From IMG/VR virus record IMGVR_UViG_3300046168_000085, positions 1 through 64,000 of that record: DNA of 64,000 nt. The stretch is one strand, 5' to 3'. Below the pieces are notes generated by a model, which was not told the DNA's origin, did no database searches, and worked only from the letters and a program-made list of their open reading frames with translations. This document shows positions 26,156 to 63,079 of this stretch, in pieces. This DNA is from a virus. A program made the position numbers and the translations under genes. The stretch's first letter is position 1. Every line of letters begins with the position of its first letter.

Positions 26156-26830
26156 TTAGAAGGAAAGTGATAATCCAACCGAAAATACGGTTTCAGAATC
26201 ACTTCCTGCGTTATCATTGTCAACAAGGGCAATGCCTGCGAATGTATCCGCACCTCCAAGAGAGGAAGTCACCGTAGCACCTACACTATAATATGTGTAG
26301 TCAGCAGCGGCATCGACAGAACCCAATGAACCATCAAGAGTCAAACCAAACTGCTCTGAAAGAGAGATTGAGTGACCCACCGATAATTCTGCTACATCCG
26401 AATCATTATCTGAATCGATTGCATACAAAACACTTGGATTGAGGATAGTTTCAACGGACAAACCAAATCCGATTTCATCAGCACTTGTAGCACTTTGATA
26501 ATCGTAATTAGTATATCCGACACTCAAATCAACCTTGCCAAGATCATAACCCAAAGAAACTCCACTACGAAGTTCGTTGGTTTGACCTGCTTCCAACGCA
26601 TTAAAAGAATCAATGGATACTCCCAAAGATACTTTTTCAGAAACTGAAGTGGAAAGACCGAGAGAAGCACCAAGAGTGTCATCTGCTTGCTTTACACCAC
26701 GGAATGTACGTGTGTCTGTATAAGAAACTCCAGCTTTACCTGTAAGTTCCCCTGCGTTAACGGTTTGATATGCGAAAAACCCTCCACCAAGAACGGCGAC
26801 GGTTGCGATTATTTTAACTAATGTTTTCAT
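26156..26830 (-). CDS. Outer-membrane beta-barrel protein (TorF/gcw_chp-like putative porin)
   Basis: Signal peptide, FRG in first strand, alternating amphipathic strands, C-terminal Phe (LSLSF). Confidence 0.7.
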   Translation of the reverse strand: MKTLVKIIATVAVLGGGFFAYQTVNAGELTGKAGVSYTDTRTFRGVKQADDTLGASLGLSTSVSEKVSLGVSIDSFNALEAGQTNELRSGVSLGYDLGKVDLSVGYTNYDYQSATSADEIGFGLSVETILNPSVLYAIDSDNDSDVAELSVGHSISLSEQFGLTLDGSLGSVDAAADYTYYSVGATVTSSLGGADTFAGIALVDNDNAGSDSETVFSVGLSLSF

Positions 26831-27092
26831 AATGAGATATTATTATGACAGATTTAACAAATATGTCAACTACTTTTCTTTTAAAAATTTTATGACTTTG
26901 TTTCTAAAATCCACATCATTTGCAATCCTATATTTTATTTTTTGCTCTATTAGTTTATCTTCGTGTTGAATCTTTTTCATAATTTCAATTTTTTTAGATT
27001 CTGTTTCTAATATAACAAATGTAAAAAATAGTAATTCCAAAAGTAATAAAAAGTACTGTTTGGATTGATAGAACATATTGATAATTAGTTAT

Positions 27093-28365
27093 TTATTGTT
27101 TTTTTTGAAAGTCGTATAAATTTTCTAATTTAAGAATATTGCTTAGTTCATTTAAAGCATTTCTACATTTTAATATAAACGAAGGCACAAATATGTCATC
27201 GTAAATTAAATTACCAACATAATACTTTTTAATCCATATTTTTAAATTATTATACAAATCTTCTGTAAAAACAACTCCAGTGTGAATGTTATTAAATTCA
27301 GTTTCATTCATAGATACTCTTAATCTTAAACACGCCGGACCACCTCCGTTCCATAAACTTTGCTCTAAATTTACATAACGAACCTTTCGTATATCATTTG
27401 TTTCTTCCGATGATGCTTTGTAGGTATTTGCGTACCAATGGACTTCTACGACATCGTATGGGTGCTATCAGCATATGCCCATCTTTATATTCAACTAACT
27501 GACTATTAAACAAATATGTTTCAACTGCAACATCAAGTGGTATCTCTGATTCAGTTATCCGTAGAAGATTTAGTTTCCCATTAAAAGAGTCCTGAAGTTT
27601 TGTAATAGTTTCTGCTTCCTCTGCTAATGCATTTTCGTGGTAAACGTACAAATTTTTATTTCCGACTCCAATTACATCGTGGTGAAATACACCAGCATCT
27701 ATGCTTTCCGCAGATTGTTGTGCGAATACTGCATTCTTGATTTGCATAATTTCCGCAACTTTTTTGGATGCTTCTAATGTTTGCCGTGCAGGATATTTTG
27801 ACGGAGTTTCTTCTGACGAATTATTTGAACGACCATACACAAAGAAATGTAATCCTTCTTCTTCATACGAATTGCAGAATCGTGTGTGATTGGCTGCACC
27901 TTCATCGTCCAACTCTCCATCACTATTCAAAGGAGAATGAATTAAAAATTTAGAGGTATCGTTGAAAATTTTATTTAATGTGATGTAAGTTTGAGGTGCT
28001 TCAATTCTACGATGATGTGTGAAATTCAAATTTGCAGTCAATAAATTTAACTTCCCATTCTCGGAATCTGTACTTGGTACGACAGTAGACGAATTAGCAA
28101 CCCACATACTGCTTGCAGATGAATTGATTGCCATATTATCATAATCTTCATAGTCGTTGATTAAAGGTCTTTCTTGTGGTGGTATAATTGCTTGTTTATG
28201 CCCCAAATCAAACATCAACTTCATTTTGTCTAAACCTTGCAATGCAGCTTCCCGTGGATTGCTCGGCTTGCTTTTGTTCGTTGCCGAGTGTACATTTCCG
28301 TTAGCAAGACCAGCATAATTGTGAGTTGGTCCAACCAACCCATCAAAGTTTACTTCAAACGACAT
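27093..28365 (-). CDS. astB: N-succinylarginine dihydrolase (frameshift near 27395)
   Basis: EVNFDGLVGPTHNYAGL, PPQERP, SASSMWVAN, DEGAANH, YPARQT, YLFNSQ; NGGGPACLRL read at about 27320-27350. Confidence 0.95.
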
Positions 28366-28379
28366 GGTATTATTATAGA

Positions 28380-28688
28380 TTACTTAATCTTACCAGTCAA
28401 CCATTCAAACATCATTCTCCAATCTGCCATCTTAGCATATATTGGATTGCTTGACAAAAACGCAGGCATATTACCTTCAAAAAGAAGATGACCCACAACC
28501 GCAAGTGGATAAACCACAAACGGAGTTAACAACAACCACCATAAACTAAGATTGAAAACGAACACGGATACAACAAATGCAATCGTTGCGACGTTTCCAA
28601 GCAAATGAAAAAACTTATTGATTGGTTTTGTGTGCTTACTCAGATAAAACTGATAGTATTCTTCAAAACTTTCAAACTTTTTTCCCAT
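28380..28688 (-). CDS. DUF962/Mpo1-like membrane protein
   Basis: FEEYYQFYLSKH...NKFFH.G; GHLLFEGN.PA. Confidence 0.8.
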   Translation of the reverse strand: MGKKFESFEEYYQFYLSKHTKPINKFFHLLGNVATIAFVVSVFVFNLSLWWLLLTPFVVYPLAVVGHLLFEGNMPAFLSSNPIYAKMADWRMMFEWLTGKIK

Positions 28689-28990: not shown

Positions 28991-29989
28991 TTACAGAAAA
29001 TATATACGAACTTTGTCGTTAATGTTTAGTTGTAATTTTTTTATGCTTTCTGCATCTACATGGATTTCTTGATTATCCCAATATTCTGCTTTTCCACGAC
29101 AACAACGAAATGGTTCGTATGTTGCAATTAAAGTATCTTTTGGGTCTTCCACGAAATTCCCTGTTAATTTACCCACCTTGCTTCTTTTAATCGCACGAAT
29201 GTTTTCAGTTTCACACGAATAAGTTGGTCCTGCTTCAAAAATATCAATCTCTCCGTTGAACTTGAAGTTCTGTTTCTGTAACATTCCCTTTGCAGGTTCC
29301 GTATTTTTGTGGACTTTACCAAGAACATCACGAACGTGTTTCGGAAGAAGATTAACGTAAATAGGATGACTCGGCATAAGGTCTTCTATAAACTGCTTGT
29401 TTTTCATACTAAGATAATCTGCATTGGTATAATCTATCTTTAGAAAATGCTTCATACAATATTCGTAAAATGGTGAATGACCTCTTGTTGTTACAACACC
29501 ACGCATTTCTGCGATTACTTCATTTTCAAAACGATCAAGATATTCTGCAATAAAAAGAAATCGTGAATAACTCAACAACTTTCCGTTTCCTTTTCTTGCA
29601 TTTGGAAGCAGATAAAGAGTTCCAATTTCAGTAGGACCGGAATGCTTTTTATCTAAACGCAATACTTCGTTTGAAGTTTTGATTTTAAGTTCCTTATTTT
29701 CGTGGACTTCAGTATCTGTTACATATGTGTAGAAAGGTTCAAATCCACCAACTTTGCTGATGATACCGCAGATGCCTACTAACTCGTTGTTGTTTTCCAT
29801 AACAAACAAATAACTTTCACCTTCAGGAGAATCCACCGATTTCTCAAATGAATATAATGTATGCTCAAGTCGTTTTTGAAGCAGAGATTTATCGTTCTGC
29901 AAAGTTGTTATACCAGTTCCTGCTTTTTTTGCAAGTTTTTGCAGTCCACTTAAATCATTCTTATTTATCTGCCGAACGATCATAATCAA
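28991..29989 (-). CDS. astA: Arginine N-succinyltransferase
   Basis: YLFVME, VGGFEPFY, TEIGTLYL, GKLLSYSRFLF, VIAEMRG, SPFY, IDIFEAGP. Confidence 0.93.
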   Translation of the reverse strand: MIMIVRQINKNDLSGLQKLAKKAGTGITTLQNDKSLLQKRLEHTLYSFEKSVDSPEGESYLFVMENNNELVGICGIISKVGGFEPFYTYVTDTEVHENKELKIKTSNEVLRLDKKHSGPTEIGTLYLLPNARKGNGKLLSYSRFLFIAEYLDRFENEVIAEMRGVVTTRGHSPFYEYCMKHFLKIDYTNADYLSMKNKQFIEDLMPSHPIYVNLLPKHVRDVLGKVHKNTEPAKGMLQKQNFKFNGEIDIFEAGPTYSCETENIRAIKRSKVGKLTGNFVEDPKDTLIATYEPFRCCRGKAEYWDNQEIHVDAESIKKLQLNINDKVRIYFL

Positions 29990-31343
29990 ACTGAATTAAG
30001 GTATCAAGAGTAATTTTAACAACTTCATCAATATCTTTTTTACTCATTACAGGTGTCGGAAAAAGAAAACGAACCTTCGTTGGATTTTTTCCTGCAATGA
30101 ACGAAATCACTCCGTTTTTAAATAATTCGTGGACAAACTTCATTGTGACATCAGGAGACCCATCAAACACTTGAAATGCAAACATTGCACCGATACCTCC
30201 AATGTTTGAAACAAACTCAGAGTTTTTTAATCCACTTTCAAACAAATTAAAGTATTTGTGATTCTTGCCGATTTTATACAACTCAGGACCTGTTTTGCTT
30301 TTCTTGTCGTAAAACTTACCTTTAAGAATCTCTGTCAATACTACATCGGCTGCGAACAACGATGAAGTTGCTCCTGTGAAAGTTTGCGACACCAACCCTG
30401 GTCTTGGTTTGACATCTTCTTTGAAAATCGTTGCACATACTTGTGTGCTTTTTCCTACACAAACCAAATCAACATATTCATCTAATTCAAACATTTGAAA
30501 TGCGAATGGTTTATATGTTCTTGCAAAACTTTGTACTTCATCTACAAAGAAAAGTATATCGTGCTTTTTAAGACATTTTGCAATATCTTGAAGAATCTTT
30601 TTATCTCCAACATTGAATCCACCTTCTCCTTGAATAAGTTCTGCAACCATACACGAATGTTTACCAGGATGTCTTGCAATATGCTTTTCAAGATGCTTTA
30701 CTGCTGATTCTGCATTAAACGGAATATAATCAACTTTAAGTGTATCAGGTAATCCTTCACGATAATATGGTTTATCTGTGATTTGTGAAACACCTGTTGT
30801 TCTTCCGTGGAAACAATTTGCAAATGCAAGAATACGATCAGCAGGAAACTTTTTTTGAAATGCCATCTTGATTCCGTTTTCAACTGCCATTGCTCCACTT
30901 GTTGTTAAAAATACATGATCAAGTTTTGCTCCATGTAAATTTGCAACTTGTTTGAACTTTTCCATTACAACCAACGATTCTTCGTTTTGCTGAAGATTGC
31001 CTTGCATAACACAATCACTAAACGCAGAATTTAATGATGCTTCTACAATCTTCTCGTTTCCGTGTCCAAAATAATTTACACCAATTCCACCTATCATGTC
31101 GTATTTAACTGATCCATCGGTAAGTTCTACTAATGCACCATATCCTTTTCCTGTTCCGACATAAGGAAATACCAATCCACCACCACGAACATTTTTAAAT
31201 CGTTCTAGTAGTTCTTCGGTGATTTCTTTAGGTGCAGTTGGTGGTGTGTGTTTTAGTTTTTTTACGGACTTAATATATTCTTTTAATAAAATTTGTTTTG
31301 CATCATTTGTTGTTTTGTCTGTAAAAAAATCGTTGTACCACAT
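29961..31343 (-). CDS. astC: Class III PLP aminotransferase (AstC/ArgD-like)
   Basis: SGAMAVE, FHGRT, ELIQGEGG, DEVQS, VGK; ast context. Confidence 0.75.
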   Translation of the reverse strand: MWYNDFFTDKTTNDAKQILLKEYIKSVKKLKHTPPTAPKEITEELLERFKNVRGGGLVFPYVGTGKGYGALVELTDGSVKYDMIGGIGVNYFGHGNEKIVEASLNSAFSDCVMQGNLQQNEESLVVMEKFKQVANLHGAKLDHVFLTTSGAMAVENGIKMAFQKKFPADRILAFANCFHGRTTGVSQITDKPYYREGLPDTLKVDYIPFNAESAVKHLEKHIARHPGKHSCMVAELIQGEGGFNVGDKKILQDIAKCLKKHDILFFVDEVQSFARTYKPFAFQMFELDEYVDLVCVGKSTQVCATIFKEDVKPRPGLVSQTFTGATSSLFAADVVLTEILKGKFYDKKSKTGPELYKIGKNHKYFNLFESGLKNSEFVSNIGGIGAMFAFQVFDGSPDVTMKFVHELFKNGVISFIAGKNPTKVRFLFPTPVMSKKDIDEVVKITLDTLIQFDYDRSADK

Positions 31344-31347
31344 AATA

Positions 31348-32553
31348 TTACTCCTTTGTTATATTATATAAATATAACGCAGATAACTTTGTTCGTTCTT
31401 TTAACGAATCAATGAAAATCATTTCATCACGACTATGCATTCCATTTCCAACAGGACCAAGTGAATCCATATTAGGCAATCCATATCCGTTTAGTTTGTT
31501 TCCATCACTTGCTCCTCCACTCATAATCAACTTTAGTTTGTTCATTCCAAGTTGCTTCGCACATTTTTGAAGATGCTCGGTTATTTTCTTTGCTTCTTTG
31601 GTGTATGGTTTTGGAGGACTTGTAAATTTTCCGTGAAGTTCTGTACCTGGATACTTCTTACGCATATCACGATAAAAATTTTGCAGACGATGTTCAAACT
31701 CAGTTCTTTGTTTTTTGGTGACAACTCTGCAATTGAATCTGCATATTGCTAAATCAGGAACAACATTTGACGGACCACCTCCTTCTACTTTACCTAAATT
31801 GATCGTCATTCCTTCATTGATTGTCATCATAGTCTTTGACCAATTTATGAAATCAGCAACTCCGTAAAACGCATTTAATCCATCGTGAAAGCAACGGCCT
31901 GCGTGTGCAGATACTCCTCGGAATACCATTGTATAACTTCCTACTCCTTTACGTGATTTAACGATGCTTCCGTCAGGTAACGCAGGTTCATACAACAATC
32001 CAATATCATTGTTTCTTGCGGAAGTTTCTAAATAAGAAGAAGATGCAATGCTTCCAACTTCCTCATCTGGTAAAATTAATACTTCCCAACCAACTTTATT
32101 TTTAATATCACTATTTTCGTATGCAAGCAAAGCATACAACATAGTCATTAAACCACCTTTCATATCAAGTACTCCAGGACCCATCATTTTGTTTCCGTTT
32201 ATTGTAACTTTCTGAAAATCATGGTCTTTCGGATATACGGTGTCATAATGTCCACACAATAAAATTCGTGTTTCAGCAGTTTGTCGTTTACGCAAACGAA
32301 GAACTTTTCCGTGATTTAATTGTTTTATTTCTCCGTTGGAATTTATTGAATCAATTGGAGATAACTCGTATTGATTAATTTCATCTGGTTCAAGTTCTGA
32401 AAACATTTCTTGAAGTTGATCAATTGCGACATCAAGATTTTTTAAATTATAGGTATGAGTATTAAGATTTGAAAACGACTCAAGACGATCAAGCATTTCA
32501 TCAAACCTATCGTCTATTAAACTTAGGTAGTTGTTCATACCTATAAGTATCAA
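31348..32553 (-). CDS. M20-family hydrolase, probable succinylglutamate desuccinylase (AstE functional analogue)
   Basis: GHYDTV, GPGVLDMKGG, DEEVGS, YEP, AHAG, SDGN; embedded in the ast cluster. Confidence 0.75.
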   Translation of the reverse strand: MILIGMNNYLSLIDDRFDEMLDRLESFSNLNTHTYNLKNLDVAIDQLQEMFSELEPDEINQYELSPIDSINSNGEIKQLNHGKVLRLRKRQTAETRILLCGHYDTVYPKDHDFQKVTINGNKMMGPGVLDMKGGLMTMLYALLAYENSDIKNKVGWEVLILPDEEVGSIASSSYLETSARNNDIGLLYEPALPDGSIVKSRKGVGSYTMVFRGVSAHAGRCFHDGLNAFYGVADFINWSKTMMTINEGMTINLGKVEGGGPSNVVPDLAICRFNCRVVTKKQRTEFEHRLQNFYRDMRKKYPGTELHGKFTSPPKPYTKEAKKITEHLQKCAKQLGMNKLKLIMSGGASDGNKLNGYGLPNMDSLGPVGNGMHSRDEMIFIDSLKERTKLSALYLYNITKE

Positions 32554-32555: not shown

Positions 32556-33927
32556 TTACAGAGTAATACCAGGTAGCAGTTTGCTTGGAAGTTCAGGAAC
32601 TTCAGTAAGATGTAAGGCAGTTGGGTGGCCGCAATGTTCAATAGTTGTATAACCACTTGGACGATTGCAACCACTCCAACCCATCCCACCGAAAGGAACA
32701 ACACTTGCACAACCCGTGGTAGGACGATTCCAATTTACTATTCCCGTTTTGAGTTCTGCTTCTGCTTTCCAAAATAAATTCTTGTTCTTGGTGATGACAC
32801 CTGATACTAATCCGTACTTGGTGTCGTTTGCAATTTCTATTGCGTGTTCAAAAGTATTACTGCGAATAACTTGAAGCAACGGACCAAAATATTCTTCGTC
32901 TGGTAAATTCTTTATATCAGTAACATCAATGATACCAGGTTCAACTAATCTACTTGATGTTCCATTAATTTGTTTAAATTCTTTTAATATAGTTCCACCT
33001 AAACTTACCAAATGTTTTTGAGCATCTAAAATTCCGTTGACTGCATTCACCGAAATCATTGGTCCCATAAAGGTTCTGGAGTCATCAGTATATTCTCCGA
33101 TAACAAGTTTATCAGCTGCATCAATTAAATTACGAATTATACGATCACCTTCACACGCAGTTAATCCTTTGTTAACAATCAATCTTCGTGTACAAGTGCA
33201 TCTCTGACCAGTAGAAATAAATGCAGATTGAAGAAGAATGTTTGTAGCAGTATTAAGACCACCTGCTTCTTCAACAATTGTTGCATTGTTTCCACCCATT
33301 TCCAATGCGACAATCTTTTCTGGGATAATCACTTAATGCTTTGTAAATGCTATGACCAACTTTTGTACTTCCTGTAAAAAACACTCCGTCTAACAACGAA
33401 TTATCAATTACATCTGCTCCACTTCCTTCGCATAAAATTACCACGTCTTTTGGTATTCCTGCTTGATGTAAAAGTTCCACCATTTTTCGTCCTGTTTCAG
33501 GAGTCAATGAACTTGGTTTAAATACAACAGAATTCCCTGCGAGAAGCAAAGGAACGATGTGTCCGTTTGGAAGATGACCAGGAAAGTTGAATGGACCAAT
33601 AACTGCAAAAACACCGAATGGTTTGAATCGTGCTTGTATTCCCATATCAGCATGAACTGATCGTAACGCATTAAGACGATCATTGTAAGATTCAAATGTT
33701 ACATCAATTTTTCCGACCATTGCTCCAACTTCAGATTTGGAATCCCATAAAGGTTTTCCGTGTTCTTTTGATATGGTCTCGGCGATTATATCAGAATTTG
33801 CTTCTAATAACTTTTTGTATTTTCTAAGAATACTTTTACGATGCTGAATTGTAGTTTTTCTCCAACTATCAAATCCTAGTTTGGCACTCTTGAATTTATC
33901 ATTTATTTCGTTTTTGCTAAGTGCCAT
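32556..33927 (-). CDS. astD: Succinylglutamate-semialdehyde dehydrogenase (frameshift near 33330)
   Basis: GPFNFPGHLPNGHIVP, FTGS, ALEMGGNN, FISTGQRCTC, DEEYFGP, GIVNWNRPTTG. Confidence 0.92.
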
Positions 33928-34722
33928 TACTTATTATCCGTACTTTCAAAAATTTTATCGGCAGAACCTGCAATAAATCCGTCAAAATTATTATGACGCA
34001 ATGCAAATTCATAATAGCATCCAGGAATTTCAAATAATTGTCCCTCCTCTGAATCAAACTCAACGGATACATTTTCTGCCATAATACTTGATTGCTCTAG
34101 TCCTTGTTTAACTGAACCTTTTATTTCACCACCTGAATCATTTATTCTATATCCGTTTTCTTTCAAATATGAATTTACCTGTCCAAGATTTTCAAACGAA
34201 GAACAATCTGTGACACTTATTGTAAAATGATTAACGATAAAACCAAATGTGGCCACCCAAAGCTGCATACTCACTTTCTTCTTTTAAAAAGTCATAAGTT
34301 TCTTTTGTAATCATGCCCCACGGAGTTCCACAATTACAGAAATCAAAAGCATCTAGTTGCTCGTTGGATATTTGGTTAACTAATCTGTCAATCGTATCTT
34401 GTAATTCTTGTGAAAATTCTTCTAATCTTAGTTCACTAATAAATACCCGTGTCAAATCATCATCAGAATGTAAATAATATGTTGCATCGAGTTTCTTTTT
34501 TTCAAATGCTAAGTCTTCAACTTCTGAATATCCACTCTTTACAAAAGATTTGGCAAGAACACTACGATTAATACGTGGATGATTGAATGTTCTTAATGCA
34601 ATATGATCATTCTTTACCGAAGTTCCTTCGTGTTGCTCAATGAGTTTTTTTACTTTAACAACTTGCGGATTTACACGTGAATACATACTCCACATATCAT
34701 CAAACAATTCTCGTATATTCAT
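33927..34722 (-). CDS. DUF1338 family protein (HglS/YdcJ-related fold; frameshift near 34265)
   Basis: NDHIALRT, VFISEL, ESEYAA.W, NHFT, LEQSS, YYEFA.R. Confidence 0.85.
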
Positions 34723-38155: not shown

Positions 38156-39508
38156 TTAGCACTCAGTTACATTTACTGCCAATCCACCTTTACTTGTTTC
38201 TTTGTATTTGCTTTTCATATCAGCACCAGTTGCTTTCATTGTTTTTATTACGTCATCCAATGAAATTTTTGTATCGTTTTCATTAAGCATTGCCATACGA
38301 CTTGCATTAATTGCCTTTCCAACTCCAATTGCATTTCGTTCTATACATGGTATTTGTACAAGTCCTGCAACAGGATCACAAGTTAATCCTAAATTATGCT
38401 CCATAGCAATTTCGGCCGCATTTTCTACTTGCTTTAAAGTTCCTCCTACAATTTCAGTTAATGCACCGGCTGCCATACTACAAGCAACTCCCACTTCTCC
38501 TTGGCATCCTACTTCTGCACCTGATAAACTTGCATTCATTTTGTATAACATAGCAATTACTCCAGCCGTTAATAAAAACTTGATTTCCCAATCTTCTGAT
38601 TTTTCGTGGACATACTCTTTAATATACATCATTGTTGCGGGAATAATACCAGATGCTCCGTTGGTAGGAGCAGTAACAACACGATTCATAGCTGCGTTTT
38701 CTTCGTTAACCGCAATCGCACAAATGCTTGAATAATCAAGAAATGCTTGATTATCAAGTTCATTGTTTTTAAGAAAGTTTTCGTACATAATCGCAGCTCT
38801 TCGTTCTACATTTATTGTACCAGGAAGCATACCTTGAGTTGTTAATCCTCTGTCTACGCATTCTTGCATTATTCTCCATATTCTGCGTAATTCTGTTTTG
38901 GTTGTTTTTTCTTTTCTGAAACACTTTTCATTTTCCAACACCACATCAGATATTTTCAAATTACGATTTTCTGCGATAGTAAATAATTCTTCCGCACAAG
39001 AAAATTCATTGGTGAGTTTTCTTTTGGAAGTTTTAACTTTATTCTTTTTTGCGTTACTTTCTGTTACCACAAAACCACCACCAATGCTATAATACATTCT
39101 CGTAGCAACTTCTTTACTTTTTGTATAAGCATAAAACTTTATTCCATTGGGATGATACGGAAGTTTTTTCTTTTTGTTGAAAATTATATCATTCTGCGTG
39201 AATTTAATTTTACGAATGCCACCGAGTTTTATTTCTCCGTCAAGAGAATCAACTTCATTTAATTGTTGTTGTTTTACTTGATCCGGTGCATAATTCAATA
39301 AACCGAGTTGAATTGCAATCGGAGTTCCGTGACCTTCACCTGTTAATGCAAGTGAACCAAACAACTCAATTTTGATTGAATCGACTTCACCAAATACTTT
39401 TTTGTGTTTCAAAAAAGAAACAAACTTTCTTGATGCTTGGATAGGACCTGTGGTGTGTGAACTTGAAGGACCTATTCCAATTTTGAAAAAGTCAAGAACA
39501 CTATACAT
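38156..39508 (-). CDS. sdaA: L-serine dehydratase (Fe-S, single chain)
   Basis: GIGPSSSHT.GP, YYSIGGGF, VTAPTNGASG, GCQGEVG, GLTCDP, QIPCIERN, YKETSKGGLA. Confidence 0.97.
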   Translation of the reverse strand: MYSVLDFFKIGIGPSSSHTTGPIQASRKFVSFLKHKKVFGEVDSIKIELFGSLALTGEGHGTPIAIQLGLLNYAPDQVKQQQLNEVDSLDGEIKLGGIRKIKFTQNDIIFNKKKKLPYHPNGIKFYAYTKSKEVATRMYYSIGGGFVVTESNAKKNKVKTSKRKLTNEFSCAEELFTIAENRNLKISDVVLENEKCFRKEKTTKTELRRIWRIMQECVDRGLTTQGMLPGTINVERRAAIMYENFLKNNELDNQAFLDYSSICAIAVNEENAAMNRVVTAPTNGASGIIPATMMYIKEYVHEKSEDWEIKFLLTAGVIAMLYKMNASLSGAEVGCQGEVGVACSMAAGALTEIVGGTLKQVENAAEIAMEHNLGLTCDPVAGLVQIPCIERNAIGVGKAINASRMAMLNENDTKISLDDVIKTMKATGADMKSKYKETSKGGLAVNVTEC

Positions 39509-41358
39509 TATTCAAGAAACTTGAATGTACCACCTAGAATTTTCTTTGCGAAAGAATAATTCTTTTTGTCGTTATTGTTGCTCATTCCACTAAAGTTGTT
39601 TTTGATTTTGATTTTTGCTTCACTAAAAACCACATCCATCAACTCAAGATATTCAGCTGCTTTTTCAGGATCATCTTTGATCATGCTATCAATACGTAAT
39701 GCACACGCAGATATTACAAACAACTCAGTTCCAATTTCAGTCAAACGACCAAGAAGCATTTGTTGTTTGTCTAATGAAGGACCGTATCGTGCCATTGAGT
39801 GAAATAGTTTTCTGCTTAATTTCTTGCTTGTTCTTGAAACATAAAGAAGATACTTTTTGACTGCTCCATTTACTCCCGTGGGTCCTGAATTGAAAGTTGG
39901 TAACCATTGTTTTGGATACCAAGTTGCATAGTGTATTCCTGCTCCGATAGCTGCCTTTAAACGAACCATCAATGGAAGACGTGAATCAAGAACTGCTCCG
40001 GCTGCTTTAAGATGTGGATCAAGTGCTTCACGTGCCAAAAGCAAACGCATAATTTCACTTGAACCTTCAAAGATCATATTGATACGACAATCACGAAGAA
40101 ATCTTTCCACAGGAATTGGATCAGAACCACGATTGCGAAGTGAGTCAGCAGTTTCGTAACCACGACCACCACGTATTTGCATCGTTTCGTCTGCTACTTT
40201 CCATGCTTCTTCTGTTCCCCACATTTTACACATTGCAGATTCCACACGAATATCTGCTTTTTTACCATCCACTAAACTTGATGTAAAAAGAACGATACTT
40301 TCAGTTGCGAAATTCTTGGCCGCAATCTTAGCAATTTTATCACCAATTGCTTGGTGTTTACCAATAGCACATCCCCACTGTTCACGTGATGAACCCCACT
40401 CACGACAAATCTTTAAGCAACTACGCATAAGTCCCACACAAGCAGCCGGTAATGTAAGACGACCTGTATTCAATGTGCTAAGTGCAACCTTGAGTCCTTT
40501 GCCTTCTCCTGCTACCAAATTCTCCACAGGTATCTTTACATCGGTAAATCTTACAACACCATTATACAATGCTTTAAGACCCATAAAACGACATCGAGTA
40601 ACTACTTCTACACCAGGTGTATCCATATCAAGAATAAATGCCGAAATGCTTTTACGCATTTTGCCTTTAATTTCTGTATCAGGTGTTCTTGCCATTACAA
40701 TAATAACACTTGCTTTTACTCCATTTGTACACCAAAGTTTTTCTCCGTTTAAAACATAATGAGTTTTATCTTCTGATAACTCTGCGTAAACCGTCATTTG
40801 TGCAGGATCACTTCCTACAGTTTCTTCAGTCAACGCAAACGCACTAATTTCTCCTTTACCAAAACGAGGAAGATGCTTTTTCTTTTGTTCGTCTGTTCCG
40901 TAAAGTAACAATGGTTGAGGAACTCCGATACTTTGATGTGCTGATACTAACGCAGTTATATTTCCGCACACTTCACCCAACTTCATAGCCGCACGTGAAT
41001 AATTTGTTTGTGATAAACCACGACCACCATATTCCGTTGGAATTTTAATTGCGAATGCACCAATCTTTGCAAGTTCTTTAAATACTTCATCAGGAATTTC
41101 ACCTTCACGATCAATTGCGTCTGCATCTACATACTTGTCTAACACATCACCCAATTCATTCAAGAAAATATCTCCTTTTGCTTTGTCTTCTGCTTTTTGT
41201 TTCGGAAATGGATAAATCAAATCATAATTTGCTTCACCTGTAAACAAACCACCACTAAAACTTTTTGTTCCTTTTTTTCCTTTATCACGTGCAGCCTCGG
41301 CTGCTTCCAAGGCATCTGCTTTACCCTTGGACATTTTTGAAGTATCTATTTCACTCAT
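39508..41358 (-). CDS. fadE: Acyl-CoA dehydrogenase (FadE/ACAD9-like)
   Basis: AFALTE..GSD, LNGEKLWCTNG, R.QWG..IG, QIRGGRGY, IFEGSSEI. Confidence 0.93.
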   Translation of the reverse strand: MSEIDTSKMSKGKADALEAAEAARDKGKKGTKSFSGGLFTGEANYDLIYPFPKQKAEDKAKGDIFLNELGDVLDKYVDADAIDREGEIPDEVFKELAKIGAFAIKIPTEYGGRGLSQTNYSRAAMKLGEVCGNITALVSAHQSIGVPQPLLLYGTDEQKKKHLPRFGKGEISAFALTEETVGSDPAQMTVYAELSEDKTHYVLNGEKLWCTNGVKASVIIVMARTPDTEIKGKMRKSISAFILDMDTPGVEVVTRCRFMGLKALYNGVVRFTDVKIPVENLVAGEGKGLKVALSTLNTGRLTLPAACVGLMRSCLKICREWGSSREQWGCAIGKHQAIGDKIAKIAAKNFATESIVLFTSSLVDGKKADIRVESAMCKMWGTEEAWKVADETMQIRGGRGYETADSLRNRGSDPIPVERFLRDCRINMIFEGSSEIMRLLLAREALDPHLKAAGAVLDSRLPLMVRLKAAIGAGIHYATWYPKQWLPTFNSGPTGVNGAVKKYLLYVSRTSKKLSRKLFHSMARYGPSLDKQQMLLGRLTEIGTELFVISACALRIDSMIKDDPEKAAEYLELMDVVFSEAKIKIKNNFSGMSNNNDKKNYSFAKKILGGTFKFLE

Positions 41359-41360: not shown

Positions 41361-43451
41361 TTATTTATCCTCGTAGAATTTTTTGTTTGTTTTTGCGTAT
41401 TCAAGAAGCATATCACACGGAGTAAAGTATGCATCTTTTTTTGCTAGTTCTTGTAATTTTTGAACAACTTTTAATGCTCCTAAATTATCAAGATACGAAA
41501 TTGGTCCTCCACGAAATGGAGCCCATCCAGTTCCCATTATCATTCCAAAGTCTACATCCTTTGGACTATTTACAACTTCTTCTTGTAAACAACGAACTGC
41601 TTCGTTAACCATAATTAAAATTAAACGATCAACAATTTCTTCATCTGCAATTTCTTGATTTATATAAGCAGATTGGATTGCTGATGTAGGTAACTTAGAA
41701 CTTACACCTGTTGATTTTCCATTTGTATATTTGTAAAATCCACGACCACTTTTTTTACCTACATCTTTGTTGTCGATCATTAACTTCAAAAACTCTGATT
41801 TAGGAAAATTAGTTTCAAGACGATTCAGCAGATCATCTGCGACGTGTTGACATACATCCCCTCCTACTTCATCAATTAAACGAAACGGTCCCATTGGCAT
41901 TCCAAACTTACGCAACAACTTATCGACTCGTTCAATGTCTGCACCACACGAAACCATATAAACTGCTTCAATCAAATATGGCATAAGAATTCTATTAACA
42001 AGAAATCCAGGTGAATCTTTTACCACCACAGGAAGTTTACCTGTCTTTTTAACAAACTGAGTTGCTTTTAAAACGGTTTCCTCGGAGGTACATTCTCCAC
42101 GAACCACTTCCACTAATTTCATTTTGTGAACAGGATTAAAATAATGTATTCCGACCACTCGTTCTTTATGTTGCATTTTTTCTGCGACATCTACAATACT
42201 AAGTGCTGATGTGTTTGTTGCAAGAATTGTATCATCACGAACAAGTGTTTCAAGTTCCGCAAATAAATCCTGCTTGATTTCAAGTTGCTCAATCGCAGCT
42301 TCTACTACTAAATCAACACTTTTCATTGGCATAGATTCGGTGATAGGTGTAACATTATCAAACTTACTTGATGCTTCTGCTTTAGTCATCACTCGTTTGC
42401 TTACAGCTGCTGAGTACAATTTACTTATGCTTGCAATTCCTTTTGCTACAAACTCTGGTTTAATATCCTTGAGCAATACTTTGATTCCTCTTGAACTAAT
42501 CCATTGTGCAATACCTGCACCCATCACTCCTGCTCCTATAACCGCAGTATTTTTTACTTTAAAGTCTTTGTCACTTTTTGTTTTCTTGCTTCGTTCTTGT
42601 AAAAAGAATATGTTCACCAAATTGTTTGCTACATCTGAAGTAAGAAGTTCTGCAAATGCTTTTTGTTCAAGTTTAAGTGATTCTTCACGACTTACACCAA
42701 GACCTTTCACCATAACATCAATTGCTTTCAACGGAGCAGGATAAACGCCACCTGTTGTTTTAATAACATTTTTGGTTGCTTTGCTTTTTGCGATATACTT
42801 CAACGGAAAACGATTTAATAAATGAGACTTGTATTTCTTTTTTCCATTTAGTAACATTGCTTTTGCAGATGCTTCCAAATTTTCTTTGTATACCGCACGA
42901 TCAATCATTCCAAGTTTAAGTGCCAACTTTGGAACAACCACTTTACCTGCTAGAATAATTCCCATTGCTCCAGGTAACCCAATCATTCTTGGTAAACGAG
43001 TTGATCCACCCCAAGCAGGAAGAATTCCAAGCATCGTTTCTGGTAAACCAATTTTAGTTGCTGAATCTAATGTTGCAACACGATGATCACACGCAAGTGC
43101 AAGTTCATATCCACCACCCAAACACGCACCGTGAATTGCAGCCACAGTTACACACGACAAATCCTCAATACGATCAAATGTATGCTGACCAAGTTTTACT
43201 AAATAAGAAATTCTTTCAGGTGTAGGATCATCTGCGAATGATTTCAAATCCGCACCTGCGATGAATATACTTGGTTTAGCACTTTGAAATACCACTCCTT
43301 TGATCGTCTTACTGCTATCTTCTATAAAATCAAGATGATCATTTAATTCTGCAAACATATTTTCATCAAACACGTTAGCAATTGAATTTTCTTGATCAAA
43401 TGTTATTGTAACAACATCATTTAATTGTTCTAGTTTAATTGACTTGCTCAT
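41361..43451 (-). CDS. fadJ: Fatty-acid oxidation complex alpha subunit (enoyl-CoA hydratase/3-hydroxyacyl-CoA dehydrogenase)
   Basis: FIAGAD, CLGGGYELALAC, GLPE..LG..P, GAGVMGAGIA, ATNTS, HYFNP, PGFLVNR. Confidence 0.95.
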   Translation of the reverse strand: MSKSIKLEQLNDVVTITFDQENSIANVFDENMFAELNDHLDFIEDSSKTIKGVVFQSAKPSIFIAGADLKSFADDPTPERISYLVKLGQHTFDRIEDLSCVTVAAIHGACLGGGYELALACDHRVATLDSATKIGLPETMLGILPAWGGSTRLPRMIGLPGAMGIILAGKVVVPKLALKLGMIDRAVYKENLEASAKAMLLNGKKKYKSHLLNRFPLKYIAKSKATKNVIKTTGGVYPAPLKAIDVMVKGLGVSREESLKLEQKAFAELLTSDVANNLVNIFFLQERSKKTKSDKDFKVKNTAVIGAGVMGAGIAQWISSRGIKVLLKDIKPEFVAKGIASISKLYSAAVSKRVMTKAEASSKFDNVTPITESMPMKSVDLVVEAAIEQLEIKQDLFAELETLVRDDTILATNTSALSIVDVAEKMQHKERVVGIHYFNPVHKMKLVEVVRGECTSEETVLKATQFVKKTGKLPVVVKDSPGFLVNRILMPYLIEAVYMVSCGADIERVDKLLRKFGMPMGPFRLIDEVGGDVCQHVADDLLNRLETNFPKSEFLKLMIDNKDVGKKSGRGFYKYTNGKSTGVSSKLPTSAIQSAYINQEIADEEIVDRLILIMVNEAVRCLQEEVVNSPKDVDFGMIMGTGWAPFRGGPISYLDNLGALKVVQKLQELAKKDAYFTPCDMLLEYAKTNKKFYEDK

Positions 43452-58223: not shown

Positions 58224-59793
58224 CTATCAAATTTTATTACCTCGTATCGTTTCATTTCTCCGTTGTTGTAACGATACCTAACCTCTACTTCAACGATTTC
58301 TTTTCTGTCACCATATCCTTCACTCTCTACATCGTAAGTTAGTATATTGATAGGTTTTTTCATAATCTCATGCAGATATGCCATTGTACCCTGAAGCATA
58401 TTTTATGTCAAGTGGTCGGCCATCAAAATCATGTCTAAGAAGAATTTCAGTATTTTTATACTTCATATTTTCCATATAATAAACAGGTCTACCCATATTG
58501 ACGTGTCGTTCAACTAACTTTTCTTTTATTTTTTTGTGGTCTTTACTAACAACTACATATTTGTTGGTTGATTTATCAAGTGCATATTCAAAGTATTCAT
58601 ACTTTTCACAAAAGTCACGTGTAAAAAATTCATTAAGAAATGTTACATCATTGTACAATTCACGAACTTCAAAAAGTTTTTCACGACCAAGACCGAGATG
58701 TTTATTCCAATATCTTTTTTCGTCTCCGTTGTCGCAATTTTCATATTCTTTCCCAAACTTTCCTTTATCCCATCTATCTTCAATGTCACGCAATAAAGTG
58801 TTTCCTAGTTTATATGGATTGTTCATATTGTATTTTCCACCAAGAACTCCTGCGTGGTGTTTTGCATAATCAAAAATTCCTTCGTCTCCTGCAAAGTTAC
58901 AACTTGCCATAATAAATGAATCCCAATAACTTGCCCAACCTTCGTTGAGAACTTTCGTCATTCCCTGTGGACGATAGTAAATAGATTCATCACGAATCAT
59001 ACTAAGAATATTTTGTTGCCAAGGTTCTAAACGACAATGATTAATAATCATTAGCATAATATCACGTTCAGGTCGTAAAGGGAATTTGTTTTCTGCTAAC
59101 TTTGTACGTTCTTCTCTGTCTCGTCTTTGCTTTTCAATATAATGAGGAGGATTAACATATTTGTCCATGTACTCTTTAGTATCTAAACGAGAAACGTGTT
59201 CACGTGGTTGACGGTCTTCAAAGTTGAATTTAGTTGCTTTCTTTAAATTACTTTCACGATAACAAAGTGATGGATCAATTAAATCATCAATTGCAAGAGC
59301 CCGCATTCAAAAAGTCTTTAACTTTTTTGCGGCCGAAACGATCCATATACATACGAATTTTATCACTATGATTTGCCATCACATTCATCATATTACGATT
59401 CGTGTGTTTGAACATAATATTATTCTTGAAGAAATCACTATGTGCAGTTGCGTGTGCAACAACAGTTAGATTATCAACGATAGGATTGTTTCGTTGAAGG
59501 TACATATAAGTTGGATCGGTATTTACAACCATCTCATAAATCTTACCCATACCAGAATGATACTGATGATGCAAGTTGCTCAAATTGTTGTCCGAAATTA
59601 AATGTGGATAACGAACAGGAAATCCACCATACGCCGCAATCTCAACTATTTCGTCAGCATCAAATTCTTCAATGCACAACGGATATGGATCAAGTCCATT
59701 ATCATAACACGCCTTTAGGCATTCAGGTATAAGAGCAGCCAATTCTGGACACACTCCTTCGTTTAAACTATCTACTTCCCATGCAATTCCCAT
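58220..59793 (-). CDS. spoVR: SpoVR/YcgB family protein (frameshifted)
   Basis: GFPVRYPH, KIYEMVVN, AHATAHSDFFKNN, TKVLNEGWASYW, NPYKLG. Confidence 0.92.
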
Positions 59794-59797: not shown

Positions 59798-60953
59798 TTA
59801 AAAAGGTACTTCTTCTTCAGCAGGTGTTAACAACTTCTGAAGTGTTCTGAATACGTCGGAGTTGCTATCCAACGACGCGGTTACTATTGTTTTTGGATCA
59901 AGTTCACCACTTGATAATTGTGATTCAATGTGTGGAAGAAATGTTGCCCAACTTCTTACTGCTTTAACTTCTGTTATTCCTATTAAGATTTGCATATGTT
60001 TGCATTTTTGTTAAATAATCAACACACAAATCATTATCAGAACCAAAGTTTTCTCCATCACTTAAATAAAATACATAAATGTTCCATTCGTTCAATGGAA
60101 ATGCTTTTTCTACAATATCGTTGACTAAATGAAATGCACTACTAATTTGTGTTCCACCTCCACTTTTGTATTTGTAAAACTTTTCTTGATCAACTTCTTG
60201 AGCATGATGATCGTGTACAATATATTTTACTTGAGTTTCTTGATAAAATCGTTGAACCCAGTTATCAAGATACCAACATAGTTCACGAATCAATGCACGT
60301 TTTGGTTCGTCCATACTTGCAGAGATGTCTGATACAAAAAATATGGCTGCATTCGTATCAGGTACTTCAACTGAACTCCAACTTCTAAATTCTTTATCAT
60401 CTTTAATTGGATAAAAGTTGGATAAATCTTCTGGATTGTAATCTTCCGATGAAATTAATCGTTTGAAAGCATTTTTGAGTGTTTTTCTTTTATGCAATAA
60501 ACTATTATTACCAACCTTAGCAATCCGATTCCATTTGATTTTTTCTTTTACCATTTCTCCATTGTCTTTTGGTTTTAGATTTGGTAATTGAAGTTCTTCT
60601 CCGATCATATCAAAATAGGCATCCATACTGATTCCGACATCTATTTCATGCCCATCACCTTCTCCTTCACCACCTTCACCTGGCTGAGATCCTTGTCCTC
60701 CTTGTTGTTGAGGTCCTTCTCCTACCTCATCACCTACATCTGCTTCACCGTTACCAATCCCACTCCCATCAGAAGGCTGTCCATATCGGAAACTTGGTAA
60801 CTCTACATGAGGAACTTTTACTACAACAAAGTCCTTTCCTCTTCTGGAAATTCTTTGTCCACTCTTAATGTGCTTTTTAAGTTTATCGTCAACATTTCCT
60901 TTAACGATATCCCTATATTCACCGTGGTCTTCTCTGATTCTACGAGATGGCAT
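59798..60953 (-). CDS. yeaH: YeaH/YhbH (DUF444) vWA-like protein (frameshift near the C-terminus)
   Basis: Gly-rich linker, LQLPNL.PK, DISASM, SGGGT.ISSA, LSDGEN. Confidence 0.9.
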
Positions 60954-60973
60954 AATGATGTATCCCTTGACTA

Positions 60974-63079
60974 TTAATCTTCGTCTTCGTCTGCATCACC
61001 CTCTGCAAAAATACTTCCAACATATGTAAGAACATCTGAAGCACTATCTTCATCATATCCAAACGAAGTAATAAGACGTTGCTTCAATGCATCAATCTTT
61101 TCAAGAAGTTCCTTGTCAACAACAGTTGCAGTATCTTGTGCAAGAGCAGATAACTTGATGCTATCTTTAGTATCTTCAAACAACTTCTTTTCAAGTGCTT
61201 TGTAAAGTTGCTCGTTTGAGTCATACTTAAACTCTTTACCCTTAGCGGCAAGTCCACCCATATAGTTCATAATTTCTCTACGGAAATCGTCTTTCATACC
61301 ATTGGAAATGCCAATCTTTTCTTCAATACTACGCATAAGTTGTTCATTGGCAACTTCTTCTTTACCTGTAACTTGATTTGTAACTTTTTCGTCTTGAATA
61401 TAAGCAACAATGTTATCAATGTAGTTGGTGCAAGTTGCTTTTATTGCTTCTTCACTGCTACTAAGTGCTTGTTGAACTTCTCGTTTCACGATTCTGTCAT
61501 ATTCCTTTTCTACGAGTTCAAGTCGTTCCATCAAATTCTTTTTGTCATCTTCACTATTGAATCCACTATAACTTTTAAGTCCTTCACGAATTTGTGCAAA
61601 CAACATAAATGGATTCAAACTTTTTGCACCCATTCTTGGATTTACAATTGCGTTGGAAAATTGATTCTGAATAAATCTTGCGGATACTCCACCATATAAT
61701 CCTTCTTTTGGTGATTCATCTTGCATTTCTTTCACGTGTTCATCTGTGAATCCGTGTACACTTTGACCATTGTAAAGTTTTGCTTTTTGAATGATGCTCA
61801 TATCTTGCTTGGAACTTTCTTCTAAACGACTTACAACTGCGAATAACGCAGCCAGATAAGTTGTATGAGGAGCAATATGCTTATTAACAGTTGTACCATT
61901 ATAGAAGTGATCATAAATCTTTTTCTCTTCATCAATTTTCAAAAGATAAGGAATATCAATCTTGATGGTTCTATCACGAAGTGCTTCCATAAATTTATTG
62001 TTAGTTAACTTTTCAAACTCAGCATTATTGGTATGCCCAAGAATAACTTCATCAATTGGTACCTGATTAAAACGACGTGGTTTGACACGATGCTCTTGGG
62101 TTGCACCAAGTAAATCGTACAAAAATTCAGTTTGTAACTTAAGAATCTCTTGAAATTCAATCAAACCACGATTAGATACTAGGAATTCTCCGTCAAAATC
62201 AAATGCACGGGGGTCACTTTCACTACCATATTCTGCTAACTTACGATAATTAATATCACCAGTAAGTTCGGTTGCATCTTGTGATTTCTCATCCTTTGGT
62301 TGGAATGTTCCGATACCTACACGATTCTTTTCCGACAAAACAACTCTTCTAACAACAATGTGATCAAGAACCTTGCGGTAATCCCCCCCATGCATTTCCA
62401 TTAATTGGTTGTAATAAAATTCATTAACAGGATTTAATGCTCCATCTAATTTTAATTTATATGCATCCTCAGATAAATTTTTATTCAAATTAGATATAAT
62501 TTTATTACGAACTTTTCTTGGTAAAAGTTTTAATGGCTCTTCATTCATCGGACAATTGACAAGAACATCGTTACCATCTTTATCAGAAACCCTCCAACTA
62601 AAGGAATATAAAGCACCTTCATCGGTTTTTGTATATTCTTCTAATCCTTTTTTCAATGCTGTAACGATTGTAGACTTGCTACTACCAACGGGTCCGTGAA
62701 GAAGAATAACACGTCTTTCTGGACCATAGTGACGACTTGCACTTTTAAGAATATCCATGAACTCCATTAAACTCTCTTCTAAACCATAAATTGAAATATC
62801 TCCAAGGCCTTCAAAAAATTTATATTTTACATACTTTCTCTTGCAATATGTGAACTCGTCAGTTCCATGAGAAATTACCATATCATATAATCGTTGATAT
62901 GAATTTCGTGCAATTGTGGGACTCTCTTCCACCAATTTAATATAATCCCAAAAGGTTCCTGTCCAATTTAAAGATTTGTATGTTTCAATTGCATCATCAT
63001 TGTCACATCTTATCAATGATTCAAGTGCAGAATTTTCCGTGTTAGTTTCTTTTTGTCGTTTTTTATTTTCCATAACCAT
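60974..63079 (-). CDS. prkA: PrkA/YeaG family AAA+ serine protein kinase (likely start at second Met, 63073)
   Basis: LHGPVGSSKS, IGTFQPKDEK.QD..EL.G, DPRAF.FDGE, NRG..EF, EALRDR. Confidence 0.93.
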   Translation of the reverse strand: MVMENKKRQKETNTENSALESLIRCDNDDAIETYKSLNWTGTFWDYIKLVEESPTIARNSYQRLYDMVISHGTDEFTYCKRKYVKYKFFEGLGDISIYGLEESLMEFMDILKSASRHYGPERRVILLHGPVGSSKSTIVTALKKGLEEYTKTDEGALYSFSWRVSDKDGNDVLVNCPMNEEPLKLLPRKVRNKIISNLNKNLSEDAYKLKLDGALNPVNEFYYNQLMEMHGGDYRKVLDHIVVRRVVLSEKNRVGIGTFQPKDEKSQDATELTGDINYRKLAEYGSESDPRAFDFDGEFLVSNRGLIEFQEILKLQTEFLYDLLGATQEHRVKPRRFNQVPIDEVILGHTNNAEFEKLTNNKFMEALRDRTIKIDIPYLLKIDEEKKIYDHFYNGTTVNKHIAPHTTYLAALFAVVSRLEESSKQDMSIIQKAKLYNGQSVHGFTDEHVKEMQDESPKEGLYGGVSARFIQNQFSNAIVNPRMGAKSLNPFMLFAQIREGLKSYSGFNSEDDKKNLMERLELVEKEYDRIVKREVQQALSSSEEAIKATCTNYIDNIVAYIQDEKVTNQVTGKEEVANEQLMRSIEEKIGISNGMKDDFRREIMNYMGGLAAKGKEFKYDSNEQLYKALEKKLFEDTKDSIKLSALAQDTATVVDKELLEKIDALKQRLITSFGYDEDSASDVLTYVGSIFAEGDADEDED

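Follow-up and report, generated by a model that had tools for sequence, protein, structure and literature searches.

A marine jumbo-phage fragment carries a PrkA-YeaH-SpoVR trio together with genes for arginine, serine and fatty-acid breakdown

We analyzed the first 64,000 nucleotides of the IMG/VR virus record IMGVR_UViG_3300046168_000085, a stretch we call the window (positions 1-64000 of an 80,388-bp record, which IMG/VR labels 'provirus' and CheckV estimates to be 51% complete). This record covers part of the genome of an uncultured marine jumbo/mega-phage with a contractile tail. It encodes a PrkA-YeaH-SpoVR trio, a beta-oxidation operon that ends in the serine deaminase gene sdaA, an arginine succinyltransferase (AST) gene cluster and an outer-membrane barrel. 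A first-pass annotation had read these modules as one coherent starvation and nitrogen-scavenging programme. The modules are indeed phage-borne, intact in relatives, syntenic and under purifying selection, however, neither coupling of the modules nor nitrogen-specific control was supported. The identity of the genes, their integrity in relatives, the purifying selection, the linkage and a sigma-70-like promoter for each unit are all direct observations. The reading that we favor, and to which we give about an even chance, is that the virus runs a self-digestion programme that would provide energy and precursors, with ammonium as a useful by-product.

Pfam and NCBIfam scans placed every module of the first-pass annotation on the minus strand. 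The trio occupies 58.2-63.1 kb, the thiolase-FadB/J-acyl-CoA dehydrogenase (ACAD)-SdaA operon 38.2-44.7 kb, and the ast genes 27.1-34.7 kb in the order HGLS-like-AstD-M20-aminotransferase-AstA-(80 aa)-Mpo1-like-AstB. As had been described, the modules fall within ~37 kb and are interleaved with phage replication genes, among them NrdA/B, DnaB, a 5'-3' exonuclease, UvsX/RecA, gp32 and several DNA methylases; Pfam, PHROG and NCBIfam scans of the window also found a Dda-like helicase. The trio adjoins the recombination genes and ends at ~58.2 kb, and a catabolic island of ~20 kb starts ~13 kb downstream, at ~46.1 kb. This island comprises an Ldh_2-family gene, the fad-sdaA operon, the HGLS-like/ast cluster and the outer-membrane barrel; its Ldh_2, HGLS-like and Mpo1-like genes were missing from the earlier list. 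The features are as follows.

60974..63079, minus strand: PrkA/YeaG-type AAA+/kinase-like protein, 701 aa, first gene of the trio (PF08298 1.3e-84, PF06798 4.5e-70)
59801..60953, minus strand: YeaH/YhbH (DUF444, vWA-like) (PF04285 7.4e-62; NCBIfam PRK05325.2-3, 321 bits; frameshift near 60000)
58241..59793, minus strand: SpoVR/YcgB (two PF04293 pieces, model positions 7-156 and 154-405; frameshifts at ~59310 and ~58380)
44998..46096, minus strand: Ldh_2-family dehydrogenase (PF02615 pieces; two frameshifts; intact 367-aa open reading frame (ORF) in L114)
43453..44700, minus strand: thiolase (acetyl-CoA C-acyltransferase), first gene of the fad-sdaA operon (PF00108/PF02803; TIGR01930 394 bits, cut-off 241)
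41361..43451, minus strand: FadB/FadJ-type enoyl-CoA hydratase/3-hydroxyacyl-CoA dehydrogenase (ECH_1 + 3HCDH_N + 3HCDH)
39508..41358, minus strand: acyl-CoA dehydrogenase, 616 aa (Acyl-CoA_dh N, M and 1, plus an ACAD9/ACADV C-terminal domain)
38156..39508, minus strand: SdaA, L-serine ammonia-lyase (TIGR00720 603 bits, cut-off 345)
33927..34722, minus strand: HGLS-like protein (DUF1338) (two PF07063 pieces; frameshift at ~34261, TT to TTT; single ORF of 270-300 aa in relatives)
32556..33927, minus strand: AstD, succinylglutamate-semialdehyde dehydrogenase (two Aldedh pieces; frameshift at ~33324, CC to CCC)
31348..32553, minus strand: M20 metallo-hydrolase at the position of AstE (NF005602 (PRK07338) 421 bits, cut-off 357)
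29961..31343, minus strand: class-III aminotransferase, AstC-like (PF00202 9e-47)
28991..29989, minus strand: AstA, arginine N-succinyltransferase (PF04958 1.3e-110, 369.6 bits, full length)
28380..28688, minus strand: Mpo1-like (DUF962) small membrane protein, 102 aa, between AstA and AstB (PF06127 2.2e-24)
27093..28365, minus strand: AstB, N-succinylarginine dihydrolase (PF04996 pieces, model positions 3-344 and 375-443; frameshift at ~27390)
26842..26869, minus strand: sigma-70-like promoter of the barrel gene, TTGACA-N16-TG-CATAAT (11/12 consensus matches; kept in L005, L006, L008, L022 and L027)
26156..26830, minus strand: outer-membrane barrel, 224 aa (signal peptide, C-terminal ...SLSF, remote Gcw_chp/TorF relative)
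26079..26100, minus strand: intrinsic-terminator-like hairpin at the end of the island (9-bp stem then a T run, just 3' of the barrel gene)

The labels L0xx, L1xx and L2xx, here and below, denote loci, and G0xx records or genomes, used in the comparisons. Among ORFs of at least 100 aa in the window, 81 lie on the minus strand and 13 on the plus strand, and the GC content is even (31-38%, ~34%). PolA, a T4-type baseplate protein and a tail sheath are encoded on the record outside the window. Marine contigs of 192 kb and 374 kb carry homologues of FadB and AstA (81-96% identity), and further FadB homologues (81-83% identity) lie on contigs of up to 570 kb. Homologues on contigs of 374-570 kb place the lineage at jumbo to mega-phage size, and this lineage is common in ocean metagenomes.

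Many genes look broken in the window, and we attribute this to the sequence rather than to decay. Comparison of the contig with the intact ORFs of relatives located ~20 frame junctions in ~44 kb (19500-63100). AstB, AstD, the HGLS-like gene, YeaH and a methylase are each split once, Ldh_2, a trypsin-like peptidase, DnaB and SpoVR twice, and NrdA three times, with others also affected. The junctions that were inspected are one-base insertions in short homopolymers, and in relatives every split gene is one intact ORF (e.g. YeaH, 384 aa in L044, and SpoVR, single in L044, L064 and L066). The frameshifted window copy of AstB still encodes the catalytic Cys motif NGGGPACLRLRV. As essential genes are split as often as metabolic ones and are intact in relatives, we conclude that the sequence is error-prone. 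Pseudogenisation was ruled out since NrdA, DnaB and the sheath gene are affected equally, and so was an alternative genetic code, because single-base indels separate the pieces, which are in different frames. Given this error rate, calls of a 'pseudogene' or a 'split gene' on this contig are unsafe.

A random distribution of the modules among relatives, which the first-pass annotation had named as counting against its reading, was not seen inside the lineage: wherever a contig extends far enough, the expected neighbour is there. On the ast side, the order ACAD-SdaA-methylase-small ORFs-HGLS-AstD-M20-AstC-AstA-Mpo1-AstB-barrel, followed by the genes found at 19-25 kb of the window, is kept down to ~62-75% protein identity. 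Wherever the contig extends enough, the neighbour is present for AstB (12/12), AstC (12/12), M20 (13/13) and the barrel (10/10). ACAD-sdaA, ast and the barrel occur together in L005, L006 (the 374-kb contig), L018 and L027. The trio and the fad genes are joined on one molecule in each of G006 (57.6 kb) and G013 (36 kb, PrkA 83% identical), where PrkA is followed 19-20 kb downstream by NrdB-DUF2784-Ldh_2-thiolase-FadB-ACAD-SdaA. The full chain from PrkA to ast lies on a single contig only in the window; elsewhere it was rebuilt from overlapping contigs.

The same genes are constrained. The median pairwise ratio of nonsynonymous to synonymous substitution rates (dN/dS) is 0.059 for PrkA, 0.047 for YeaH and 0.046 for SpoVR, next to reference values of 0.052 for gp32 and 0.075 for UvsX. 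The fad and sdaA genes range over 0.11-0.15 (thiolase 0.11, FadB/J 0.15, SdaA 0.11), and the ast genes, Mpo1-like gene and barrel over 0.08-0.19 (AstD 0.08, barrel 0.15). Strong purifying selection and intact ORFs together show that the genes are functional in the lineage.

Of the ast genes, AstA, AstB, AstD and an AstC-like aminotransferase are present; AstE is absent and an M20 hydrolase (PRK07338) is found instead. AstA shares 36% identity with the E. coli protein over the full length of 332 aa and belongs to a phage-only clade of 29 marine loci with 71-98% identity, beyond which identity falls to 48% or less. AstB is 45-48% identical to its E. coli counterpart, with E174, H248 and C365 invariant; we take these residues to be the Cys-His-Glu catalytic triad of the E. 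coli structure. The intact L005 ORFs score 525 bits for AstB (NF009789, cut-off 452) and 535 bits for AstD (NF006992, cut-off 514). No gene of the AstE family was found in the phage AST cluster, and the M20 hydrolase is a candidate succinylglutamate desuccinylase that may replace it. With this candidate, all five chemical steps of the pathway can be assigned to genes of the cluster, as activities predicted from sequence.

Cellular AST clusters show a similar arrangement. In 80 cellular loci, an orthologue of the AstC-like aminotransferase adjoins AstA in 60, an M20 of the same family is present in 42, in the order M20-AstC-AstA-AstD-AstB, and an HGLS-like gene lies near the cluster in 13. The nearest cellular AstA proteins (41-48% identity) come from metagenome-assembled genomes of Planctomycetota (Phycisphaeraceae, Pirellulaceae, Mariniblastus), Fibrobacteria, Desulfomonilaceae, Omnitrophota and Nitrospinota. 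Because cellular relatives hold the same six families, including M20 and HGLS, the phage set is most simply explained as one old en-bloc acquisition of a non-enterobacterial variant that appears to use M20 in place of AstE. An Mpo1-like gene was not found in the 80 cellular AST loci. Its family, that of a 2-hydroxy fatty acid dioxygenase, may link the cluster to lipid alpha-oxidation. In most relatives the identity of the Mpo1-like protein is 94-99%, also where that of AstA drops to 73%; in L005 and L007 it is 76-77%.

In the fad-sdaA operon, FadB/J matches the FadJ model over its full length at 626 bits, under the equivalog cut-off of 869, and forms a phage clade of more than 110 clusters at 67-99% identity, followed by cellular proteins at 53% or less. 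The nearest NCBIfam model of the acyl-CoA dehydrogenase is a Bacillus-type FadE (250 bits). Its gene starts 2 nt after FadB and overlaps the start of sdaA, which indicates translational coupling, and SdaA follows ACAD in L005, L006, L018, L027, L115, L116 and L117. By its TIGR00720 match, SdaA is a single-chain Fe-S L-serine ammonia-lyase with alpha and beta domains; a scan of genomes with this single protein returned only two uninformative matches. For the Ldh_2 protein, the nearest NCBIfam model is L-sulfolactate dehydrogenase, at 270 bits and below the cut-off of 500.

PrkA is 28% identical to E. coli YeaG over 591 aa and keeps the Walker A motif (GPVGSSKS; GPVGGGKS in E. coli), and YeaH retains its D-x-S-x-S motif. 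IMG/VR holds 167 relatives of PrkA, which fall into a close group at 75-94% identity and a distant group at 48-50%. The close group shares the order PolA-PrkA-YeaH-SpoVR-methylase-gp32-UvsX-exonuclease-DnaB-NrdA. Where the contig extends enough, YeaH is adjacent in 31/31 and SpoVR in 29/29 close relatives, and the trio is adjacent in the distant group too. The locus L062 (G017, 222,461 bp, CheckV 100%) has a PrkA 77%, a YeaH 53% and SpoVR pieces 53-70% identical to those of the window. It belongs to a different phage, with almost no other genes in common within 10 kb on either side of the trio. As this unrelated phage carries a 77%-identical PrkA, the comparison suggests that the trio moves between marine phage lineages.

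The porin of the first-pass annotation is present as an outer-membrane barrel, but with only a remote relationship to Gcw_chp/TorF and without a direct Pfam match: hmmscan gave no match to PF09694 at E<=0.1. The 224-aa sequence shows a signal peptide, an alternating beta pattern and a C-terminal Phe. Alignment to the Gcw_chp profile with hhalign gave 93%, with E 3.6e-7 over 190 columns that include the F-R-G-x-x-Q motif. An AF2 (AlphaFold2) model has 12 strands, at low confidence (pLDDT, predicted local distance difference test, 57), and the top Foldseek matches are all outer-membrane barrels, e.g. PcoB at template modelling (TM) scores of 0.59/0.65. Atlas feature matches score 0.95-0.96. We therefore describe the 224-aa protein as a predicted 12-strand outer-membrane beta-barrel and a remote Gcw_chp/TorF relative. 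Of 101 Gammaproteobacteria sampled, one of them an unpublished genome (G091), 46 have Gcw_chp genes. The first-pass annotation had placed such barrels near nitrogen-uptake genes, and this is borne out in the 30 gammaproteobacterial loci that we examined (L205-L234, none from G091), where glnK-amtB lies within 1.5 kb in 16/30. In these 16 loci the Gcw_chp/TorF gene is directly upstream of glnK-amtB, a strong link to ammonium uptake. To our knowledge, this link is uncharacterised so far.

A generic promoter and terminator scan performed no better on the window than on shuffled sequence, and so only sites conserved across relatives were used. A conserved promoter-like element, TTGAC(T/G/A), precedes the first gene of each unit, that is PrkA, thiolase, AstB and the barrel. 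It reads TTGACG-N18-TATATA upstream of thiolase, where it is kept in the window and in L114-L116, TTGACT-N17-TATAAT before AstB, and TTGACT upstream of PrkA. At the trio only this sigma-70-like TTGACT was seen, and no E. coli-like starvation control by RpoS or NtrC-sigma-54. Rfam searches at gathering and permissive thresholds matched only a tRNA and no riboswitch.

We hypothesize that the modules act as a chain. The trio would drive bulk breakdown of host protein, as YeaG does in starved E. coli. YeaG, renamed SpdA, drives non-specific bulk proteolysis in carbon-starved E. coli, which supplies amino acids and, via their catabolism, ATP, with energy as the main benefit during carbon starvation (PMC13684143, PNAS 2026); it is also required when nitrogen starvation is sustained (PMC4664914). 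The AST enzymes and SdaA would convert the freed arginine and serine to glutamate, succinate, pyruvate and ammonium, and beta-oxidation would turn lipids into acetyl-CoA and reducing power. ATP, tricarboxylic acid (TCA) cycle intermediates and nitrogen would thereby be kept flowing for replication of a giant genome in a nutrient-poor host, and the barrel may let ammonium or small nitrogen compounds through the outer membrane. The fad, sdaA and ast genes are all catabolic and feed the TCA cycle, and by analogy the phage gene set appears to match closely the component list of the E. coli starvation programme (PMC13684143). We infer the enzyme activities, their timing, the coupling of the modules and the choice of energy or nitrogen as the main gain from sequence. 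In a stronger version, which we offer tentatively and hold somewhat doubtful, the chain would resemble autophagy, drawing energy, carbon skeletons and ammonium from the biomass of an oligotrophic cell that is starved or dormant, so that the giant genome could be replicated without external nutrients.

A number of observations weigh against such a programme. AstA or FadB was found in 0/29 other trio-bearing huge-phage records examined: 28 IMG/VR records and LR756511 (595 kb) have neither, and these trio-only records include a complete 572-kb genome and a 222-kb genome. As the trio stands alone in other huge phages, coupling is not independently shown and the modules need not work together. Synteny inside one lineage amounts to one history, may be simple inheritance, and is no independent proof of coupling. 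PrkA of bacteria has two candidate molecular activities, kinase and protease. The AstC-like aminotransferase has just 26% identity to E. coli AstC and falls below all NCBIfam cut-offs, the substrate of the M20 hydrolase is a prediction, and no acyl-CoA synthetase (PF00501) was matched on the 80-kb record, which is itself a fragment of a larger genome. A FadL gene was not noted on it either, although no search was directed at FadL. The same class of sigma-70-like promoter precedes gp32 and a methylase, so the modules have no dedicated regulon. A search for sigma-54 -24/-12 sites gave 33 loose matches against 24 expected, none of them at gene starts, and no PII, AmtB or glutamine synthetase gene was found on the 80-kb fragment.

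The first-pass annotation's own interpretation was nitrogen scavenging, in which the modules would free ammonium from arginine and serine and the barrel would take up nitrogen, all in support of replication in nitrogen-limited hosts. AstB and SdaA do release ammonium: AstB frees two NH3 per arginine, and SdaA one per serine. A giant genome presumably brings a large nitrogen demand, and the barrel is a remote member of a family found upstream of glnK-amtB in about half of the gammaproteobacterial loci. In E. coli, ast and yeaG are activated by NtrC (10.1101/254623; PMC4664914). Against this, the contig has neither sigma-54 sites at the modules, nor a glutamine or other riboswitch, nor PII, AmtB or glutamine synthetase; beta-oxidation, Ldh_2 and the Mpo1-like protein are irrelevant to nitrogen; and the role given to YeaG in carbon starvation is in energy (PMC13684143). 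We therefore regard nitrogen scavenging as unlikely. Since beta-oxidation yields no nitrogen, the YeaG evidence points to energy and no nitrogen control was seen, self-digestion is favored over it.

Another possibility is that host-like genes were picked up independently at different times, each with a small benefit of its own and with no coordinated programme. The trio is widespread by itself, and its PrkA recurs in the unrelated 222-kb phage. The modules are separate transcription units divided by replication and methylase genes, and the same genome holds a broad grab-bag of further genes (dCMP deaminase, NUDIX, deformylase, IF-3 and S21). No cellular homologue exceeds ~53% identity, and the nearest ones of AstA point to Planctomycetota, Fibrobacteria and Desulfomonilaceae. 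However, fad, sdaA, ast and the barrel are packed into one ~20-kb island with translational coupling of ACAD and sdaA, and a proteolysis driver, amino-acid catabolism and fatty-acid degradation, all catabolic and feeding the TCA cycle, are the components of the E. coli programme (PMC13684143). We consider independent accretion improbable. Far less probable still is that the metabolic genes are host DNA, either a provirus flank or a chimeric assembly, as the IMG/VR class 'provirus', the bacterial-type genes and the error-rich contig might imply. Phage genes lie on both sides of the island, on one strand and at an even ~34% GC; different samples gave at least 10 independent assemblies with the same order, among them the 192-kb and 374-kb contigs; the proteins form phage-only clades with cellular homologues at 53% or less; and the promoter type is common to the island and the genes outside it. 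On the phage flanks, the GC content, the independent assemblies and the phage-only clades, we reject an origin as provirus or host flank.

The ends of other records suggest why the island was not seen before in viral catalogues. Narrow and broad pattern searches of IMG/VR found AstA on no other viral contig, no other PrkA-bearing record holds AstA, and FadB is present in only two further records, L114 and L115. Two 'provirus' records, G008 (L118) and G019 (L119), break off exactly at the end of the DUF2784 gene, with Ldh_2-fad the next in order, and a third, G021 (L120), ends slightly earlier, before NrdB. Ends at a gene boundary are what trimming would yield, and they look like CheckV-style removal of 'host-like' genes that hides the island. 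Such trimming explains both the lack of AstA in other viral contigs and the small number of records with FadB. If provirus trimming in IMG/VR cuts the island off as 'host', viral metabolism is systematically hidden in curated catalogues.

Among GenBank phages and in the searchable literature, we found no bona fide phage with an AST pathway. The AstA, FadB and SdaA matches that we examined in GenBank phages are records that look like bacterial DNA under phage names, Salmonella whole-genome shotgun contigs and tiny or unannotated contigs among them. The misleading records include CAKLQH02/CAKLQF02 'Acinetobacter phage MD-2021a' (multi-contig), AGRM01, AFYI01 and OR85xxxx, which carry ast, fad and sdaA in 200-690 kb with full housekeeping operons. 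Mislabelled bacterial contigs of this kind can give false matches to phage auxiliary metabolic genes (AMGs). Two papers on marine jumbo phages mention none of these genes (PMC9123017, PMC12619734). Phage AMGs in general are well known, but neither the searchable literature nor GenBank phages gave a report of a bacteriophage with a complete arginine-catabolic pathway, a complete beta-oxidation set and a serine deaminase. If the link between the modules is true, it reveals how giant phages cover the costs of replication in nutrient-poor oceans and offers a natural system in which to study the poorly understood PrkA-YeaH-SpoVR module.

The sigma-70-type promoters, the C-terminal Phe of the barrel and the mostly proteobacterial barrel family suggest a diderm, perhaps proteobacterial, host. 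The clues conflict, as the nearest AstA homologues are planctomycetal whereas promoters and barrel lean to Proteobacteria. The window also encodes NUDIX and dCMP deaminase proteins, one tRNA-Ser and further translation-related genes.

6732-9207 and 19411-20242: translation-related genes (peptide deformylase; IF-3, encoded by infC and above its cut-off; ribosomal protein S21; tRNA-Ser)

Several other observations concern the surrounding genes. A trypsin-like serine peptidase ORF lies between NrdA and NrdB (48776-49774), with two frameshifts in the window and a single 333-aa ORF in L114. At 21548-23114, a 129-aa AAA fragment and a 408-aa ORF correspond to one ORF of ~526 aa in relatives, a MoxR-like AAA fusion, and this gene adjoins one for a DUF2201_N metallopeptidase-domain protein (20280-21557). 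Small ORFs separate the methylase from the ast cluster, among them those of a NusG-N-terminal-like small protein and a SAP-domain protein (35294-35843), and the 81-aa and 83-aa ORFs at 35592-36085 are a single ORF in relatives. The lineage is mosaic: upstream of PolA, the large proteins of the window share only 29-63% identity with those of close relatives (L002 2328-9971 compared with L044/L064/L066 1-9500), against 82-98% in the replication block downstream of PrkA.

Among known phages, the nearest parallel in kind is Mar_Mega_1 (PMC9723777), likewise an uncultured marine phage of very large size that has translation-related genes and AMGs of carbon metabolism. Its AMGs are Idh, PncC, a patatin-like phospholipase and SusC, with no AST, beta-oxidation, SdaA or trio (PMC9723777), and the PrkA proteins of its relatives LR745206 and LR756502 are only 27-28% identical to that of the window. 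Compared with bacterial fadBA/fadIJ-fadE, the phage thiolase, hydratase/dehydrogenase and ACAD cover the same four reactions of the spiral, but they are joined with sdaA in one operon, reside on a bacteriophage and are at most 53% identical to cellular FadB/J. Beta-oxidation genes have reportedly been seen in giant eukaryotic viruses. The barrel shares with the putative porins of the Gcw_chp/TorF family (PF09694) a mature length of ~200 residues, the signal peptide, the C-terminal Phe and F-R-G-x-x-Q, however, unlike many bacterial Gcw_chp genes, it does not lie beside glnK-amtB.

The trio consists of the same three families as yeaG(spdA)-yeaH plus ycgB of E. coli and prkA-yhbH-spoVR of B. subtilis, in the operon order also found in the phage. 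The phage proteins are only 26-28% identical to those of E. coli, below the NCBIfam equivalog cut-offs, and stand behind a sigma-70-like promoter, whereas the E. coli system is controlled by RpoS/NtrC. Copies of the trio have already been annotated in Ralstonia phage RsoM2USA (PMC8504454) and in Thermus phages too. Relative to astCADBE of E. coli and aruCFGDBE of Pseudomonas, AstA, AstB and AstD are clear members and a class-III aminotransferase lies by AstA, however, the phage cluster has M20 for AstE, a rearranged gene order, and added Mpo1-like and HGLS-like genes. AST clusters in Planctomycetota, Fibrobacteria and Desulfomonilaceae show the same exchange of M20 for AstE.

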